This document shows positions 1 through 59,158 of a stretch of 64,000 bases of DNA, piece after piece. The notes beneath the pieces are model-generated. The model was given only the letters and a program-made list of their open reading frames with translations, ran no database searches and was not told where the DNA came from. Position 1 is the stretch's first letter. Each line of letters begins with the position of its first letter. Position numbers and translations under genes: made by a program. This DNA is from Naegleria gruberi (lineage: Eukaryota), in NCBI GenBank assembly GCA_000004985.1, contig GG738863.1; one strand, written 5' to 3'.

Positions 1-360
1 CCAACCCAAACCCAAACCCAACCCAAACCCAAACCCAAACCCAAACCCAAACCCAAACCCAAACCCAAACCCAAACCCAAACCCAAACCCAAACCCAAAC
101 CCAAACCCAAACCCAAACCCAAACCCAAACCCAAACCCAAACCCAAACCCAAACCCAAACCCAAACCCAAACCCAAACCCAAACCCAAACCCAAACCCAA
201 ACCCAAACCCAAACCCAAACCCAAACCCAAACCCAAACCAAAACCAAACCCAAACCCAAACCCAAACCCAAACCCAAACCCAAACCCAAACCCAAACCCA
301 AACCCAAACCCAAACCCAAACCCAAACCCAAACCCAAACCCAAACCCAAACCCAAACCCA
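1..360 (+). repeat. Terminal telomere array, (CCCAAA)n on the + strand (G-strand unit TTTGGG), with rare variants (CCCAAC at positions 1-20, CCAAAA/CCAAA at ~236-250)
   Basis: Seen directly: about 60 perfect hexamer units starting at base 1. The C-rich strand runs 5'->3' on +, which fits a left chromosome end. The array stops abruptly at 360 into unique AT-rich sequence. Confidence 0.9.
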
Positions 361-1128: not shown

Positions 1129-2450
1129 NNNNNNNNNNNNNNNNNNNNNNNNNNNNNNNNNNNNNNNNNNNNNNNNNNNNNNNNNNNNNNNNNNNNNNNN
1201 NNNNNNNNNNNNNNNNNNNNNNNNNNNNNNNNNNNNNNNNNNNNNNNNNNNNNNNNNNNNNNNNNNNNNNNNNNNNNNNNNNNNNNNNNNNNNNNNNNNN
1301 NNNNNNNNNNNNNNNNNNNNNNNNNNNNNNNNNNNNNNNNNNNNNNNNNNNNNNNNNNNNNNNNNNNNNNNNNNNNNNNNNNNNNNNNNNNNNNNNNNNN
1401 NNNNNNNNNNNNNNNNNNNNNNNNNNNNNNNNNNNNNNNNNNNNNNNNNNNNNNNNNNNNNNNNNNNNNNNNNNNNNNNNNNNNNNNNNNNNNNNNNNNN
1501 NNNNNNNNNNNNNNNNNNNNNNNNNNNNNNNNNNNNNNNNNNNNNNNNNNNNNNNNNNNNNNNNNNNNNNNNNNNNNNNNNNNNNNNNNNNNNNNNNNNN
1601 NNNNNNNNNNNNNNNNNNNNNNNNNNNNNNNNNNNNNNNNNNNNNNNNNNNNNNNNNNNNNNNNNNNNNNNNNNNNNNNNNNNNNNNNNNNNNNNNNNNN
1701 NNNNNNNNNNNNNNNNNNNNNNNNNNNNNNNNNNNNNNNNNNNNNNNNNNNNNNNNNNNNNNNNNNNNNNNNNNNNNNNNNNNNNNNNNNNNNNNNNNNN
1801 NNNNNNNNNNNNNNNNNNNNNNNNNNNNNNNNNNNNNNNNNNNNNNNNNNNNNNNNNNNNNNNNNNNNNNNNNNNNNNNNNNNNNNNNNNNNNNNNNNNN
1901 NNNNNNNNNNNNNNNNNNNNNNNNNNNNNNNNNNNNNNNNNNNNNNNNNNNNNNNNNNNNNNNNNNNNNNNNNNNNNNNNNNNNNNNNNNNNNNNNNNNN
2001 NNNNNNNNNNNNNNNNNNNNNNNNNNNNNNNNNNNNNNNNNNNNNNNNNNNNNNNNNNNNNNNNNNNNNNNNNNNNNNNNNNNNNNNNNNNNNNNNNNNN
2101 NNNNNNNNNNNNNNNNNNNNNNNNNNNNNNNNNNNNNNNNNNNNNNNNNNNNNNNNNNNNNNNNNNNNNNNNNNNNNNNNNNNNNNNNNNNNNNNNNNNN
2201 NNNNNNNNNNNNNNNNNNNNNNNNNNNNNNNNNNNNNNNNNNNNNNNNNNNNNNNNNNNNNNNNNNNNNNNNNNNNNNNNNNNNNNNNNNNNNNNNNNNN
2301 NNNNNNNNNNNNNNNNNNNNNNNNNNNNNNNNNNNNNNNNNNNNNNNNNNNNNNNNNNNNNNNNNNNNNNNNNNNNNNNNNNNNNNNNNNNNNNNNNNNN
2401 NNNNNNNNNNNNNNNNNNNNNNNNNNNNNNNNNNNNNNNNNNNNNNNNNN
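1129..2450. other. Assembly gap (1322 N)
   Basis: Run of n. The ORFs the track reports across it (1012-2880) are artefacts of translating repeats and Ns. Confidence 0.99.
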
Positions 2451-2826
2451 ACCCAAACCCAAACCCAAACCCAAACCCAAACCCAAACCCAAACCCAAAG
2501 CCAAACCCAAACCCAAACCCAAACCCAAACCCAAACCCAAACCCAAACCCAAACCCAAACCCAAACCCAAACCCAAACCCAAACCCAAACCCAAACCCAA
2601 ACCCAAACCCAAACCCAAACCCAAACCCAAACCCAAACCCAACCAAAACCAAACCCAAACCCAAACCCAAACCCAAACCCAAACCCAAACCCAAACCCAA
2701 ACCCAAACCCAAACCCAAACCCAAACCCAAACCCAAACCCAAACCCAAACCCAAACCCAAACCCAAACCCAAACCCAAACCCAAACCCAAACCCAAACCC
2801 AAACCCAAACCCAAACCCAAACCCAA
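2451..2826 (+). repeat. Second, interstitial (CCCAAA)n telomere-like block in the same orientation as the terminal array
   Basis: About 62 hexamer units, with variants cccaaagcc at ~2489 and ccaaccaaaaccaaa at ~2640. It is bounded on the left by the N gap and on the right by subtelomeric repeat sequence. Confidence 0.9.
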
Positions 2827-12053: not shown

Positions 12054-12103
12054 NNNNNNNNNNNNNNNNNNNNNNNNNNNNNNNNNNNNNNNNNNNNNNN
12101 NNN
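12054..12103. other. Assembly gap (50 N) inside or next to the Zn2Cys6 gene
   Basis: Run of n. Confidence 0.99.
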
Positions 12104-46277: not shown

Positions 46278-49038
46278 TTACAATTTCATAAAGTGTTTAC
46301 CTGTGACTGGACAAACGTTCATGTTTTTAGCACAAATATAATGTGTAACGACACCATTAGGATAACAAACAAAGGCACTCATACCTAATTTCTTATTGCA
46401 CACTGCACAAGTTCTATCTGGTTTAACCTTTACAACTCTCTTTCTTTCCTTAATGACTTCTTCGTGAACTTGGAGATTCTCAGATCGATTGATATTTTTC
46501 ATAATTTGAGCACGTCTCTTTTGTTCCGTATGGCACCTCAGAGTTGCTTCAAAGTACTTCATCAAATCAGATATTGGAACATTTTCTGGGAGCAATTTAA
46601 TTGCCTTGATCAAGTCAATCTTTGAAAAGTGACGTTCCAATAATCCAATAGCATCTTCAAAGAATAAATTGTTTTCTGTACTGGCACTTTGCTTTAAAAT
46701 CATATTGAGAAGAATGATAAATATTTCCCTACTTTCTTCACTTCCATCTGGATTATAGTGTTGCTCGCAATATTTCTCAGCCTTATCCATACTTTCCAAT
46801 TTGGTAACATAGATAGTCAGAGCTTGGGAGTGTCTATTAATCTTACTCAACAAAATAGCTCTCTCTTCGTACAGGGAATCGAATGGGAATCTCGAAAGCA
46901 TCTTTTCAGAGTGGTAAAAAGTAGAGTGGGTCAAAAAGTCGTTCATTCTACGCTTGACATCCTTAACTGGTTGAAGGAGTCCAGGAATACTATCTTCCTC
47001 ATAGTTGGATGCTGATGTTGAGTATTTGGTCACATATTCCAAATAGTACAATAAAAGTTGATTGTGAAGGTTTGGATCCACAGATTTTTCAACCTTAATC
47101 AAGTGTTCCAAATAGGCAATCTTCATGGCCAGAGCATGATCAAACAAATCCAAGTGAGATAAAATTTCATTTACACTAATTGGACAATTTGGTACTTGGA
47201 AAATCTTTAAACCACGAAGTGGCTCAGCACTGAGTACCCACTTTGAGAATTCTAAAATGTACTGTTGTCCTTCTCCAACCTGTTGTAATTCCTTCAAATA
47301 GTTAATAGTTGGCATGACACCAATCAAGTCGGTGTAAATAGATGTTGCTGATGACTTGTCTCCCAATAATTTCAACAATTCAAGAGCTCTATCGTGCAAC
47401 CCTTTGGTCTTGTAGAAGAGAACCAACTCTCTAAACTTTTGATGGGAGTGGAGGGTCTTTTGACTGTCCATAATGTTACAATGATTTGGTTGGGTGATAA
47501 AATCTTCAACGTGAGGGTCATTAGTGTATAAAAGTGCCTTCAATAATGCTGTATCAACTGCCTCAGCTTCATCTAGAGCTTGCTCATTCAAATCCTTTTC
47601 TGTTGTTCTTCTGTGAAGCAAGTATTGAATCAGGGCTTGAAGGGCCTTATTTCTTTGTTCAATATCCTTTAAAAAGTGATCAATCTTTCGTTGCTCTTCA
47701 GAAGTGTAAGGGAGGGAGAATTTAAATGAAGATTTTGGTGGTAACAAATCAGGGAAGAGTGAAATAATCATACGTGGATCATCTTTAGTCTTATCAAAAT
47801 GTTCCATTGCCTTGTCAAATTCACCTTTGGCAAACAAGTGAAAACCAAATTGTGTGTGAATGGAACTAACTCTCCAATCTTCAATCTTATATCTGGTATT
47901 CTCTACAGTATTACAGAGATGGAGAGCCAATTCAAATTGTTGATTGGATAAGAGTTCTCCAGCTTGCAAATCAAATTGTTTCATTACCATAACATAGATG
48001 GAACTCTTTGAAGCGAGGAAAATTCTATTTTCTGGATCAATGGTGTCATCTCTGTCGAGTTCATTTCTTACCTTGAATCCAACACCCATACCATGATCCA
48101 TATTTTCTGGATGATCCAAATCAATGAAATTCTGTTGACTTGTTGTAATGATATCCTTGAGTGGAAGACTCTGAATGAAAGTATCCTTTTTCACAGTGGT
48201 ACTCAAAATTCTAACCTCAACAAAAACAGAGAGTGGTGCAATGAGGTATGGTTTCAAATAGCCAATCATGTTTGGAGCTTCACTCCATCCAATACCATGT
48301 GATCGTGAAGGTTTACCAGAAAAGTTGATGGTCACACCAATTCCATTCAAAACCACAATAGTTTCATTGGGAAGTGATAATCCAAGAGTATTTTGTTGTG
48401 AAACACCTGTATCGAAAAGTTTTTGTGGCATGGCAGATGGCTTTAATACATCAATTAATGAATATTCCTTTTTGAAACCAACACAGAGCTTGTCGCCACT
48501 CCAATTCAAAGATTTGGCAGCATCTGGCAGAACCAATTCCTGTTGATATTTAAATTTAGATTCCTTACTACCATATTCAAAGATTGAAATCTTTTTCTTT
48601 GATGCAACTGCCATTGTAAATTCACCATTGTGCTTTTTCAGAGCAAAAAACATGCATCCCTTCAATTGATTTTGCTATCAATTTAATTACACTCAAAATA
48701 TTCCAAATTATTCTTACCTTTAAATTCTTGAGTGTATCAATTTCACTCAACATTCCGAGAGTATATACTTTAATAAATCCATCTGTCAAACAAATCAACA
48801 TTCCCAATTCTGGAACTGAGCACATTTGAGTGATTGGCTTTTTGCTAAATTGTTTCTTTTGACTGTCCAGAGCACAAGTAAACTTTTCCTTGTTTGCCTT
48901 TTTATCATATCGAATATTGTAAAGGGATAAGGTACCATCAGTGGTGGCCACAAAAAGAGTATTGCACCACACACACAATGATTCTACCTTTCCCAATCCA
49001 TCCAATAATTGGAAATATTCAAAGGCTGTATGTCCCAT
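46278..49038 (-). CDS. Vam6/Vps39/TRAP1-like tethering-complex subunit (CNH domain + helical repeats + C-terminal zinc-binding tail). Two exons: 49038-48718 and 48674-46278. Intron 48717-48675 (43 nt; alternative acceptor at 48660), ~905 aa
   Basis: N-terminal MGHTAFEYFQLLDGLGKVESLCVWCNTLFVATTDGTLSLY (CNH-like). C-terminal CAVCNKKLGMSAFVCYPNGVVTHYICAKN. Donor GTAAGA; the 43-nt choice matches the local intron size. Confidence 0.7.
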
Positions 49039-49929
49039 TGTTTTAATAAATTATTCTTCTTCCGAATATAAAATCCAACAAATTAATTTCCTATAACTAT
49101 TGTGTCTCTGATCTTGTTCAACAATTCCGTTCTTTCGATCTATCGTATTTGATGCTGATGATAATATTTTCAGAGTTTGATTATTATTATCGTGTGATGA
49201 CCAAGAAGAACGAGAAAAGATTTTTTTATAAAATTAAAATTGAATTTTATTGTTTTAAAAAAAACTAATAAAAGATTTTATTTGTTCCAGCCAACAGAAA
49301 GCTGTTTTTTACCTTCTTCTCATTACTGTTCGTGTCGATTTGATAGCGATTTGATGGATTGTATTTTAATTGATTGTGCCTCTCTTAAAGCGGAGGTAAC
49401 TACTTTCTTCTACAAACTTGTATGTGCGGAGAAGGAAATCCTCGTGCTTCCTCTCTTCATATCTTCATAATAAAAAGTTTATTCTTCAAAATATTTAATA
49501 GATAAGAGATTATCAAAAAATTTGCCAACCAACCACCAGATTCTGTTTGATTAGCAAAATCCGCTTTGCAATTGTTTATTCACTGCGTTTTAAATACGTT
49601 TTCTTCATCATCAGAGAGAGTGGTTTTTAAAAAGTTGTGTGTTTGGTTTAATCAATAGTACAATTCACTAGAACAATAACAACAAATCTTCATCATTAAC
49701 TTCTCTCTAGGTTTTACTTACAATATCAAGTAATATATTAAAGCGCACATCTTATATCTAATAAGGAGAACAACAAGTCTACTACTATTAGAATAATATT
49801 ATTTAAATTATTTACACACCACCATCATAATACAAATTGGTAACAATACGGAAGGATAACAATTTAATTATCATCAACTACCATCATTAATTTAAACAAC
49901 ATCACATCAAAATATAAAAGCGAATAACA

Positions 49930-51009
49930 ATGCTGTCAGATTCTAATTCCTTCATGATGGAAGATCAACAAATGCCTCCTTCTTCGTCATCTTCTTCTGC
50001 TTCTTCTTCCCCTGCTCCTTCCTCTCCACTTTCACCTCATCATACAGCAACTTTTGAAACAAACATGCTTGATGAATATGGAAGCAGTATCAATCACCCT
50101 TCTAAGCCACTTAACACAACAAATACAGCAACAACAACACTAAATAATGCATCCAACAATAATATAGAACACATGAGATCAGCTGGCAATGATGATTCTT
50201 TACCACCTATTGCTTCCATACCACCAAACAATTCAACTTCTCGTGTTGTTAATGTTGGGCCAATTATGAATGCAATTCAAGCTTATAGTGGTAATAATGG
50301 TAATAGTACACTTGTTGATAATGTAAATGTCAGAATATCCTCCGCCTCATCTTCATGTTCAACCATTTCAGATCATTCTATGAATAATACAATGATTAAT
50401 GGACAAGCACCAAAACCACTTAATGATTTTGAAAATGTATTTGCTAGTTTCAAGAAGAGAAATAGAGAACAATACGAAAATAATAATCAATCCTCGTCAT
50501 CATCTGATCCAGTTTCATATATTAGAGATTTGGAAGATAAAATTGATTTTATGGCACAATTAGTCACTATTCAATCTGCCAAAATGAGAAAGATGGAAAT
50601 GAGATTGAAAAAATTGGAAAACTTACTTCCTCAATCAGGGGATGAATTTGTAAATTCAGGCAATCTTCATCGTATGCCACATAGTGATGAGTTATCATCA
50701 ATTAGTGATGATATACCAACATTTTCAGCACCAAAGAAGGAAAAGGGTAATAGACAACCTAATGCCTATAATATTTTCATGAAGGGAGAAATTCAACGTA
50801 TTCGAACAACTCACACAGAATTAACACAAAAACAGGCATTTAAACTTGCTGCCAATAATTGGACTTTGAAGAAATCTGAAATCCTTGGAGCTTCAAATGG
50901 TTCACAGAAAAAACCAGACGACAGAACTAGCACAGTAAGCACACCTAGTGATACTACCATGGCAGATTCACTTTCTGAAACACCACTCAATCAACTTGAC
51001 GAAAAGTAA
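49930..51009 (+). CDS. HMG-box-like / YABBY-like DNA-binding domain protein (359 aa) with a coiled-coil and an S/N-rich N-terminus
   Basis: PKKEKGNRQPNAYNIFMKGEIQRIRTTHTELTQKQAFKLAANNW aligns by eye with the YABBY consensus PSAYNRFIKEEIQRIKA.NPDISHREAFS.AAKNW and with HMG boxes. Coiled-coil IRDLEDKIDFMAQLVTIQSAKMRKMEMRLKKLENLL. Confidence 0.55.
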   Translation: MLSDSNSFMMEDQQMPPSSSSSSASSSPAPSSPLSPHHTATFETNMLDEYGSSINHPSKPLNTTNTATTTLNNASNNNIEHMRSAGNDDSLPPIASIPPNNSTSRVVNVGPIMNAIQAYSGNNGNSTLVDNVNVRISSASSSCSTISDHSMNNTMINGQAPKPLNDFENVFASFKKRNREQYENNNQSSSSSDPVSYIRDLEDKIDFMAQLVTIQSAKMRKMEMRLKKLENLLPQSGDEFVNSGNLHRMPHSDELSSISDDIPTFSAPKKEKGNRQPNAYNIFMKGEIQRIRTTHTELTQKQAFKLAANNWTLKKSEILGASNGSQKKPDDRTSTVSTPSDTTMADSLSETPLNQLDEK

Positions 51010-51261: not shown

Positions 51262-52783
51262 ATGGCATTCGGATCGTGCGNNNNNNNNNNNNNNNNNNNN
51301 NNNNNNNNNNNNNNNNNNNNNNNNNNNNNNNNNNNNNNNNNNNNNNNNNNNNNNNNNNNNNNNNNNNNNNNNNNNNNNNNNNNNNNNNNNNNNNNNNNNN
51401 NNNNNNNNNNNNNNNNNNNNNNNNNNNNNNNNNNNNNNNNNNNNNNNNNNNNNNNNNNNNNNNNNNNNNNNNNNNNNNNNNNNNNNNNNNNNNNNNNNNN
51501 NNNNNNNNNNNNNNNNNNNNNNNNNNNNNNNNNNNNNNNNNNNNNNNNNNNNNNNNNNNNNNNNNNNNNNNNNNNNNNNNNNNNNNNNNNNNNNNNNNNN
51601 NNNNNNNNNNNNNNNNNNNNNNNNNNNNNNNNNNNNNNNNNNNNNNNNNNNNNNNNNNNNNNNNNNNNNNNNNNNNNNNNNNNNNNNNNNNNNNNNNNNN
51701 NNNNNNNNNNNNNNNNNNNNNNNNNNNNNNNNNNNNNNNNNNNNNNNNNNNNNNNNNNNNNNNNNNNNNNNNNNNNNNNNNNNNNNNNNNNNNNNNNNNN
51801 NNNNNNNNNNNNNNNNNNNNNNNNNNNNNNNNNNNNNNNNNNNNNNNNNNNNNNNNNNNNNNNNNNNNNNNNNNNNNNNNNNNNNNNNNNNNNNNNNNNN
51901 NNNNNNNNNNNNNNNNNNNNNNNNNNNNNNNNNNNNNNNNNNNNNNNNNNNNNNNNNNNNNNNNNNNNNNNNNNNNNNNNNNNNNNNNNNNNNNNNNNNN
52001 NNNNNNNNNNNNNNNNNNNNNNNNNNNNNNNNNNNNNNNNNNNNNNNNNNNNNNNNNNNNNNNNNNNNNNNNNNNNNNNNNNNNNNNNNNNNNNNNNATT
52101 TATTGTGGAATGATTATTTGAATTCTGTTCAACAATTTCAATTGGAACCCAATAATACTCATCATTATCATCCATTGAAAACATTCAAGGCGAGAGTGAA
52201 GAATTTCTCTGGAGTTTTACTTTCCTCTCCAACAATTTCAATGAGTTTCATATATAATCAGGTATTTTGGATTACACCTTATGGAAAGGGTGATTCGTCC
52301 AATAATTTTGAATATTATAGGGAGAGAATTGAGAGAGCTATTTCAAATTTCAATTTGCATGTGTTAAAGTTTTTGGTTGTGCCTGTTTTACGGATATTCC
52401 CTTCACTTCCATTGTATCCACCATTTGGAATACCGTGTGCTCAACCAAAATGCAGAGAACGTTTCCAAAATGATGCTCTACTTTACAAGGGCTACTGGAA
52501 GAGTTCAACATCTATTTCCATTTTGGAAGAGATGAGGAGTGTGAAAATTTTACTGGCCTCCTTTAATCCTGACCAATCTCAATCCACACAGAACGTACCC
52601 ACACTCATTGTATACGGAGAATCTGATAATTTCTTCTCGTGGGACGAAACTAAACATCTCTTCTCCAAACATTTTCAAAATATAACATGGAAATCATATC
52701 CCAATCTTAAACACGACGTTTTCCATGAGGATGTTAAAGAACCAGTGTGCAGAGATTTATACAACCTTGTTGTAAGAAACTGA
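51262..52783 (+). CDS. Alpha/beta-hydrolase (MGLL/lysophospholipase-like) gene interrupted by an 817-N gap; only the C-terminal ~225 aa (52098-52783) and a possible start (51262 MAFGSC) are visible
   Basis: C-terminal PTLIVYGESDNFFSWDETKHLF…NLKHDVFHE (Asp/His region of hydrolase_4). The frame across the gap is unknown. Confidence 0.45.
51281..52097. other. Assembly gap (817 N)
   Basis: Run of n. Confidence 0.99.
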
Positions 52784-57450: not shown

Positions 57451-59158
57451 ATGATTAAAACACTTTCATTCATACTACTAGTGTTATTATCACTCTATTC
57501 TATTATATCTTTCATTAGAGCTCAAGAAAGATTCATTAATGTCAAGTATTCAATTAAAACTTTGATTGGAACTGGTGCTGGAATATTTAACTTGGATGGG
57601 TTGACTGGATTGGCTACTAATATTAATTCACCTATTGGCGTGTTTTATGAAGAGAGTAGTGGTGATTTGAATTTCTCACATACATGTAAGTTTCATACTT
57701 TCGAATAATAATTTTCATGTTATTCGAAACAACAGTAAACAATACAGTAAGAGTTTTGAGAAACTCATCNNNNNNNNNNNNNNNNNNNNNNNNNNNNNNN
57801 NNNNNNNNNNNNNNNNNNNNNNNNNNNNNNNNNNNNNNNNNNNNNNNNNNNNNNNNNNNNNNNNNNNNNNNNNNNNNNNNNNNNNNNNNNNNNNNNNNNN
57901 NNNNNNNNNNNNNNNNNNNNNNNNNNNNNNNNNNNNNNNNNNNNNNNNNNNNNNNNNNNNNNNNNNNNNNNNNNNNNNNNNNNNNNNNNNNNNNNNNNNN
58001 NNNNNNNNNNNNNNNNNNNNNNNNNNNNNNNNNNNNNNNNNNNNNNNNNNNNNNNNNNNNNNNNNNNNNNNNNNNNNNNNNNNNNNNNNNNNNNNNNNNN
58101 NNNNNNNNNNNNNNNNNNNNNNNNNNNNNNNNNNNNNNNNNNNNNNNNNNNNNNNNNNNNNNNNNNNNNNNNNNNNNNNNNNNNNNNNNNNNNNNNNNNN
58201 NNNNNNNNNNNNNNNNNNNNNNNNNNNNNNNNNNNNNNNNNNNNNNNNNNNNNNNNNNNNNNNNNNNNNNNNNNNNNNNNNNNNNNNNNNNNNNNNNNNN
58301 NNNNNNNNNNNNNNNNNNNNNNNNNNNNNNNNNNNNNNNNNNNNNNNNNNNNNNNNNNNNNNNNATTCGAAAGTTTGTGGAACTAATGGAAAATGTCTGA
58401 CAATTGACAAGTGTGTTTGTAAAGATGGATTTTATGGTCTTGATTGTTCACTTCCTATTTGTTTGAAAGCAGAAAATGGAAAGTGTGCTAATGATACAAC
58501 AGGTGTAACTGTAGAAAATATTGAAACAAGTCAATTGTCAAACAAATCAATTTCTCTTAGTTCAGGAAATTTGACAGAAAGTTCAGTAGTTTCAGTTTCC
58601 TTTCCTTCTGATTTTTCTCATTATATTTCCAATCAAACAACCTTCTCATCAGTTTCTCTACTCACAGCGGTTTCTACAAGCGGAAACAATTTGACAAACT
58701 CAAATTCTGCTTTCTCCATAGTTTCGAATATAATCACAATTTCACTTGCCTTAACAAATGGAAAAAAGATTCCAGTTTCTAATTTGGAAAATCCTATACA
58801 AATCTCATTCCAAAAACCAACAAGTTATTCTGGAAATTTGACATGCATGTACTTGGACGAATTGACCAATGAATGGAAATCAGATGGTGTGAAAACTGTT
58901 ATTGAACCATTAACAGTCAATTGTCTGACTTCTCATTTAACTTCCTTCTCGGTAATTGATATTAATCTCAGGAAGGAAATTGGAAAACCAAAAGAATCAC
59001 CGAGTGTCAGTAATCAAACAATTTCACAAAGTCAACTCTCTCAAGAAGCTATCATTGCAATCTCAGTATCAATTGCTGGAAGCTTCATTGTTTGTTGTGT
59101 TGTTGCAATAATCCTGTCAGCTGTTATCTGCTTAATAAGAAGAAAATCGAAGAAGTAA
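57451..59158 (+). CDS. Single-pass membrane protein with a signal peptide, NHL-type repeats, an EGF-like module, an S/T-rich stalk, a GPS (GAIN-type autoproteolysis) motif and a TM + RRKSKK tail. Exon 1 57451-57685, intron 57686-57735 (50 nt), exon 2 from 57736, interrupted by a 595-N gap, resuming 58365-59158
   Basis: [24 protein letters not shown]. After the intron, LNNTVRVLRNSS is an NHL motif like the GNNRIRKI of the kinase ectodomain. CGTNGKCLTIDKCVCKDGFYGLDCSLPIC is EGF-like. GNLTCMYLDELTNEWKSDGVKTV…TVNCLTSHLTSFSVI matches the GPS consensus (W…G…C.C.HLT.F.V). TM IIAISVSIAGSFIVCCVVAIILSAVICLI. Confidence 0.65.
57770..58364. other. Assembly gap (595 N) inside the NHL-EGF-GPS gene
   Basis: Run of n. 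Confidence 0.99.

Follow-up and report, generated by a model that had tools for sequence, protein, structure and literature searches.

In plant reviews, YABBY is still presented as specific to plants or to the green lineage. An open reading frame in a 64,000-nucleotide stretch of genomic DNA from Naegleria gruberi (GenBank assembly GCA_000004985.1, contig GG738863.1; hereafter the window) raises the question of whether a YABBY box also exists in a non-plant eukaryote, and what kind of protein carries it there. A prediction made from the letters of the sequence had placed a YABBY-like, HMG-type domain at the C terminus of the encoded protein. The analysis below examines this assignment by profile comparison, structure prediction and comparison with related proteins.

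Gene structure and genomic context

The gene is an uninterrupted single exon of 359 codons plus a stop codon, it starts with an ATG, and several in-frame stops lie upstream of that ATG. Its product was found to be 100 % identical to a deposited Naegleria gruberi ‘predicted protein’, and orthologs of similar length, of which four were compared, are present in N. lovaniensis and N. fowleri. This identity and the Naegleria orthologs therefore assign the window to the nuclear genome of an amoeboflagellate of the Heterolobosea. Most of the window has a GC content of about 32–35 %, and the open reading frame is preceded by an AT-rich intergenic region. The coordinates of the gene, its features and its surroundings are collected in Table 1.

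Table 1. Features of the YABBY-box gene and of its surroundings in the window
Feature	Residues	Position in window	Strand	Basis or remark
CCCAAA hexamer array (TTTGGG on the opposite strand), about 60 copies		3..360		98 % matches; very start of the window
Assembly gap (N-run)		1129..2450		
CCCAAA hexamer array (TTTGGG on the opposite strand), about 63 copies		2451..2826		98 % matches; directly after the preceding gap
Assembly gap (N-run)		12054..12103		
Divergent upstream neighbour, Vps39/Vam6-like		46278..49038	-	By eye: CNH-like N-terminus, long helical body, C-terminal cysteine-rich motif
Suggested short intron of the neighbour		near 48622..48665	-	Neighbour split in two open reading frames
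Complete single-exon gene	1–359	49930..51009	+	Open reading frame, identity to deposited protein, upstream stops
N-terminal S/N/T-rich, fast-evolving predicted disordered region	1–160	49930..50409	+	Low ortholog conservation, pLDDT <50, low complexity
Short conserved helix and basic motif F-x3-[FY]-x2-[FY]-KKR-x-R	166–182	50425..50475	+	Family alignment, predicted helix
Coiled coil of about five heptads, ending in LPxxG	194–233	50509..50640	+	Heptad register, invariant residues, predicted helix
Acidic serine-rich linker SDELSSISDD	252–261	50683..50712	+	Conserved within Naegleria
YABBY-type two-helix HMG-like box with basic N-terminal arm	269–312	50734..50865	+	PF04690, plant-only HMM
Predicted box helix I	279–294	50764..50811	+	AlphaFold, pLDDT about 97–98
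Predicted box helix II, including A303, F304, A307, A308, N310 and W311	300–324	50827..50901	+	AlphaFold
C-terminal disordered tail	325–359	50902..51006	+	pLDDT <50 at 323–359, poorly conserved
Assembly gap (N-run)		51281..52097		Starts about 270 nt after this gene's stop codon (YABBY-box gene)
Assembly gap (N-run)		57770..58364		

The gap that follows the gene leaves its 3′ UTR or terminator region, as well as the next gene, incomplete. The two hexamer arrays look like a telomeric repeat at the scaffold end together with a second array that is either interstitial or an artefact of scaffolding.

Profile evidence for a YABBY-type box

The presence of a YABBY-type box was assessed by hmmscan against Pfam-A. 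Residues 269–312 matched PF04690 (YABBY C-terminal) with 48.8 bits (E=9.4e-13) over profile positions 17–60 of 69, and the Pfam gathering cutoff for this model is 28.6 bits. HMG_box_2 (PF09011) reached 17.3 bits (E=0.008), below its gathering cutoff of 22.4 bits, and HMG_box (PF00505) had no match in the protein even at E≤10. The YABBY model is thus ahead of HMG_box_2 by 31 bits. This bears out the original prediction that the C-terminal segment RQPNAYNIFMKGEIQRIRTTHTELTQKQAFKLAANNW (residues 275–311, window 50752..50862) fits the YABBY consensus, and fits it better than a generic HMG box; the reverse ranking, with HMG_box well above YABBY, had been set in advance as the refuting outcome and was not seen.

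Direct comparison with plant boxes gave the same picture. The alignment of the Naegleria box with plant YABBY boxes has no gaps and shows 47–53 % identity (median 49 %), the signature P.AYN.F.K.EIQRI...AF..AA.NW being common to both. On an HMM made from plant YABBY boxes only, the Naegleria box scored 62.6 bits and the best of 1000 shuffles of the box scored 9.6 bits, so the YABBY match is far beyond chance. Among Naegleria-group orthologs the box is almost invariant.

As in the plant YABBY factors (FIL/YAB1, CRC, INO and their relatives, which combine PF24868 with PF04690), the box is C-terminal, has two helices and is preceded by a basic N-terminal arm. It differs from the plant boxes in the loop, which reads T-H-T-E-L-T in Naegleria and N-P-[DE]-I-[SP] in plants, and in having Q300 in the place of the plant His.

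Two other readings of the protein were rejected. A sub-threshold Pfam match to CALCOCO1 and PDB matches to the TRPM2 coiled coil are generic coiled-coil noise. A bHLH reading of ‘helix-loop-helix’ was set aside as there was no HLH profile match and the pattern found is an HMG-box one.

Predicted fold and comparison with HMG boxes

The fold of the conserved C-terminal part was predicted with AlphaFold from an alignment of 73 sequences, with a mean pLDDT of 80. The model has a short helix at 166–182, a long coiled-coil helix at 194–232 (pLDDT 87–94) and, in the box, a first helix at 279–294 (pLDDT about 97–98), a loop at 295–299 and a second helix at 300–324. Most of the box lies at pLDDT 94–98, as does helix II, for which the value drops to about 76 towards the C-terminus. 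Helix II is not followed by a helix III in the model. Beyond W311, all family members have variable or low-complexity sequence. In an earlier full-length run with four sequences, the overall pLDDT was 49, values were below 50 over most of residues 1–161 and over residues 323–359, and the box was drawn as one continuous helix; the modelled loop of the box therefore depends on alignment depth. The 73-sequence model agrees with the HMG-like two-helix fold that had been proposed for the segment.

A Foldseek search of the PDB with the predicted model returned no significant match (best E=0.37). The top matches, none of them significant, were mostly HMG boxes, among them those of UBF1, HMGB1/2, HBP1, SRY, SOX2, SOX18, HMG-D, TFAM and CIC, and the superpositions on HMG boxes had an RMSD of 1.1–1.8 Å over 36–44 columns, corresponding to helices I and II. 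A sequence search for a solved structure of a YABBY domain found none. With canonical HMG boxes (HMGB, SOX/SRY, TFAM and UBF; PF00505 and PF09011) the Naegleria box has in common helices I and II and the core pattern P-x-x-A-[FY]-x-x-F ... W. It differs from them in that its score is below the Pfam HMG cutoffs and in that the predicted fold is without helix III, and hence without the full L shape.

These comparisons bear on whether the box could be an ordinary HMG box that is merely divergent, its higher YABBY score being an artefact of a short profile and implying no specific tie to plant YABBYs. The HMG-box fold matches and the sub-threshold match to HMG_box_2 speak for this, as do the 150 best relatives discussed below, among which HMG_box_2 is matched by 114 and HMG_box by 101, and the UniRef name of the Acrasis ortholog, ‘HMG box domain-containing protein’. 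We nevertheless consider it unlikely, given that the YABBY model leads by the margin reported above and passes its curated cutoff when the HMG models do not, that the gapless identity to plant boxes includes the YABBY signature, and that helix III is neither predicted nor conserved. By the common view, the HMG-box superfamily includes the YABBY box as a subtype with two helices, and the choice between a divergent HMG box and a YABBY-type box is for this reason partly, indeed largely, a question of naming.

Absence of the zinc finger

The N-terminal C2C2 finger of plant YABBYs was predicted to be lacking, and this was found to be the case. The YABBY_N finger model (PF24868) had no match in the protein in the hmmscan against Pfam-A, in which residues 1–160 matched no Pfam family at all, and the only cysteine in the protein is C143. 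Alternative exons did not supply a finger either, the pattern CxxC-x(8-35)-CxxC being absent from open frames in the 890-bp upstream intergenic region (49039..49929) and downstream of the gene. Consistent with this, the finger is absent from all orthologs compared, including the four of similar length. Where the plant factors have a C2C2 finger, the Naegleria protein instead has a coiled coil ahead of the box.

A coiled-coil and YABBY-box family in Discoba

Relatives were collected by an exhaustive HMMER search with residues 160–322 against 1.84 billion representative sequences, which gave 178 matches at E≤1e-3. Matches over the whole query, covering both coiled coil and box, were found in Acrasis kona (KAL0485126.1, Heterolobosea), in Andalucia godoyi (ANDGO_02326, Jakobida) and in metagenomic sequences, and a later profile search for family members added one more, P0035. 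Members have a variable disordered N-terminus, the basic motif, a coiled coil of about five heptads that ends in LPxxG, a linker and a single YABBY-type box. The basic motif at 166–182 is retained in Naegleria, Acrasis and the heterolobosean-type metagenomic members and is absent from the jakobid-type members.

In the family alignment, the coiled coil has the consensus EK.[DE]F[ML]AQI...QSAKI[RK][KR][LM]E.RL...E..LP[DQ].G, with Q210, Q215, K218, E223, E230, L233 and P234 invariant and G237 nearly so. The heptads follow a clean 3–4 register, with I198, I205, V212, M219, L226 and L233 at a positions and L201, M208, Q215, M222 and L229 at d positions, so that the invariant glutamine Q215 occupies a position in the core. 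The invariant residues of the box are Y280, F283, M284, E287, I288, I291, Q300, K301, A303, F304, A307, A308 and N310.

A coiled-coil HMM made from the heterolobosean-type members only recovered the jakobid-type members with 31–41 bits (E=1e-5 to 0.016 at a database size of 1.84e9), and the next-best score among 151 proteins was 8 bits. From this specificity it follows that the two modules are independently conserved and jointly define a Discoba family, which appears to be undescribed so far. A protein of 80 aa, P0142, consists of the family coiled coil only (80 bits on the coiled-coil HMM) with no box, and is probably a truncated gene call of another family member.

Distribution and origin of the box

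For a broader comparison, 209 boxes were taken from the 150 best relatives, which carry between one and four boxes each. PF04690 was present in 149 of these relatives and the YABBY_N finger in 26. The boxes without plant hallmarks nevertheless have a consensus that is nearly the plant consensus. Of the 20 matches outside the family that were looked up, only three have organism names (Pyramimonas, Mesostigma and Macadamia), and the others are metagenome proteins. A reading of the ‘non-plant’ box set as evidence of a wide spread beyond Viridiplantae was therefore withdrawn, as the named owners that were looked up proved to be green algae or plants. The only box owners outside Viridiplantae verified in this analysis are Naegleria, Acrasis and Andalucia. 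The first of these confirms a YABBY-type box in a non-plant eukaryote as predicted, the host being N. gruberi, a heterolobosean.

The green-algal YABBY-like proteins, of Micromonas (cited in PMC8074164), Pyramimonas and Mesostigma, and other YABBY-like proteins that do not have the plant architecture share a box consensus, kRaPSAYNlFMK.EiarlK..nP.L.HKEAFK.AA.NWk, which is essentially that of the window box, and they likewise carry the box outside the classic plant arrangement of zinc finger and YABBY domain. They differ from the family in having one to four boxes, some of them in tandem, and no family coiled coil, and most of them come from metagenomes.

Several further architectures were seen among the relatives. 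Tandem YABBY-type boxes, two to four in number with basic low-complexity linkers, occur in 39 of the 150 relatives, mostly uncharacterised metagenomic proteins (for example P0005, P0009, P0011, P0017, P0020, P0021 and P0025), and in P0015 three boxes occur together with an HNH endonuclease domain. An IMG/VR sequence scan with P0015 as query gave no confirmed match. The Ccdc124/Oxs1 model (PF06244) is matched by 44 of the 150 relatives at E≤1e-3 and is precomputed on P0014. In these relatives its match presumably overlaps the box region, and in the window protein it had no match at E≤10.

In the viral structure library (BFVD), the best matches to the predicted model were the giant-virus proteins A0A7S9SU11, A0A7S9SUF3, A0A7M3UNQ9 and A0A6N1NVJ7 (E about 5e-3 to 0.15). 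Their sources are Virus NIOZ-UU159, Tupanvirus, Satyrvirus and Pyramimonas orientalis virus, and they are named either ‘YABBY protein’ (NIOZ-UU159) or HMG box. In a bootstrapped neighbour-joining tree of the 43-residue boxes, the Naegleria boxes grouped in 200/200 replicates, the jakobid-type group was recovered in 192/200 and the family as a whole formed a clade in 4/200.

The box could in principle have been transferred horizontally into Discoba, with a green alga or giant virus as donor, and fused there to a resident coiled-coil protein. In keeping with such a transfer, the box has a patchy distribution so far as known, the few close boxes outside the family that have organism names belong to green algae (Pyramimonas and Mesostigma, for example), and giant-virus proteins named for YABBY or for the HMG box are the top viral structure matches, if only at E about 5e-3. 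The occurrence of the two-module architecture in both Heterolobosea and Jakobida points instead to an early presence in discobids, and the box tree, with its poorly recovered family clade, is without positive support for nesting among algal or viral boxes. Overall, we regard a transfer as quite improbable. It would concern the origin of the box and not its mechanism, and it is compatible with the reading of the protein as a DNA-binding dimer set out below.

Relationship to GCNA

YABBY boxes have been linked to a pan-eukaryotic two-helix HMG box by Carmell et al. 2016 (PMC5098910), who proposed that plant YABBYs are derived members of GCNA that lost the protease. The same study describes modular domain loss and lists D2VSR1 (D2VSR1_NAEGR) as a canonical N. 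gruberi GCNA. The relationship of the window protein to GCNA was assessed with the GCNA HMG-box HMM, which was rebuilt from the supplement of PMC5098910 and in which all emission rows sum to 1. The comparison uses this published HMM, with the authors’ match criterion of E<1e-5.

The best domain of the window protein on this HMM scored 5.1 bits (E about 1e5 at Z=9e7). For the box in isolation the score was 11.1 bits and for its shuffles up to 11.8 bits, and members of the Discoba family ranged from -3 to 14 bits. With a score at the level of shuffled sequence, the window box is therefore not of GCNA type by the criterion of Carmell et al. The plant boxes scored 16–26 bits, about 23, on the GCNA HMM, and 58–67 bits, with a median of 62.3, on an HMM of the Discoba-family boxes. 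By these scores the discobid and plant boxes appear far closer to each other than either is to the GCNA boxes, the gap being about 40 bits between different HMMs that are only roughly comparable. The lower scores of plant YABBY boxes (P0059, P0067 and others) on the GCNA HMM than on the Discoba-family HMM are also not easily reconciled with plant YABBYs as derived GCNA members.

The window protein resembles GCNA/ACRC in its extended disordered N-terminus and in its HMG-like box, which has two helices and equal length and register. It differs in having neither the protease nor the finger, and in having a coiled coil that is not part of GCNA. The protein could on this basis be a degenerate GCNA/ACRC paralog that lost the SprT protease and the C2C2 finger and kept the disordered region and the box, an idea favoured by this order of disordered region and box and by the published report of both modular loss and a canonical N. 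gruberi GCNA. We judge it highly improbable. Not only is the box scored no better than shuffled sequence on the GCNA HMM, but there is no SprT family among the Pfam matches of the protein at E≤10, and with its single cysteine the protein also has no counterpart of the C2C2 finger that lies between protease and box in GCNA. The large disordered region at residues 1–160 is not a GCNA-specific feature. The coiled coil that defines the family has not been described as a GCNA component, and an architecture common to Heterolobosea and Jakobida is not the product of recent decay specific to Naegleria.

The same scores suggest a different origin of the plant factors, in which a pre-existing box was joined to a C2C2 finger and no GCNA protease was lost. 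The reason for proposing it is the difference between the scores of plant boxes on the Discoba-family HMM (about 62 bits) and on the GCNA HMG HMM (about 23 bits). We put it forward tentatively, as a possibility on the unlikely side.

Proposed function of the protein

With moderate confidence, we read the window protein as a dimeric DNA-binding regulator or architectural protein. The parallel-type coiled coil would drive oligomerisation, in the simplest case to a parallel dimer (or to a higher oligomer), and a dimer would present two boxes to DNA. On the model of HMG boxes and of the YABBY domains of plants, the basic arm KKEKGNR and the box with its two helices may bind DNA and probably bend it via the minor groove, a binding mode that is an extrapolation because the box is without helix III of the canonical HMG core. 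The basic arm, together with the KKR.R motif as a putative nuclear localisation signal, may direct the protein to the nucleus. The fast-evolving, disordered S/N-rich N-terminus could serve as an effector or interaction region. Such a protein would act as a transcription factor or as an architectural chromatin protein.

The C2C2 finger of plant YABBYs has been reported to mediate self-association. In the Discoba family, the coiled coil may take this part of the finger.

Significance for Naegleria and Discoba

The domain assignment is correct, and it is already present in public databases. PF04690 is precomputed for the exact N. gruberi protein, and the N. lovaniensis ortholog is listed in UniRef as ‘YABBY protein C-terminal domain-containing protein’. 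Of the original prediction, the domain call thus stands and its novelty does not. In the literature searched, no paper was found that mentions both YABBY and Naegleria. The finding changes no major concept, and what is new is modest, a small Discoba protein family that so far as appears had not been described.

A well-conserved family that spans Heterolobosea and Jakobida and carries a bona fide YABBY box shows that the box either goes back much further than the plant factor family or has greater mobility. The closeness of discobid and plant boxes to each other, relative to those of GCNA, bears on the published descent of YABBY from GCNA. The Discoba family also provides a natural finger-free context for studying the YABBY box alone. 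For the biology of Naegleria itself, the protein would add one candidate dimeric DNA-binding regulator, which is conserved in the pathogen N. fowleri.
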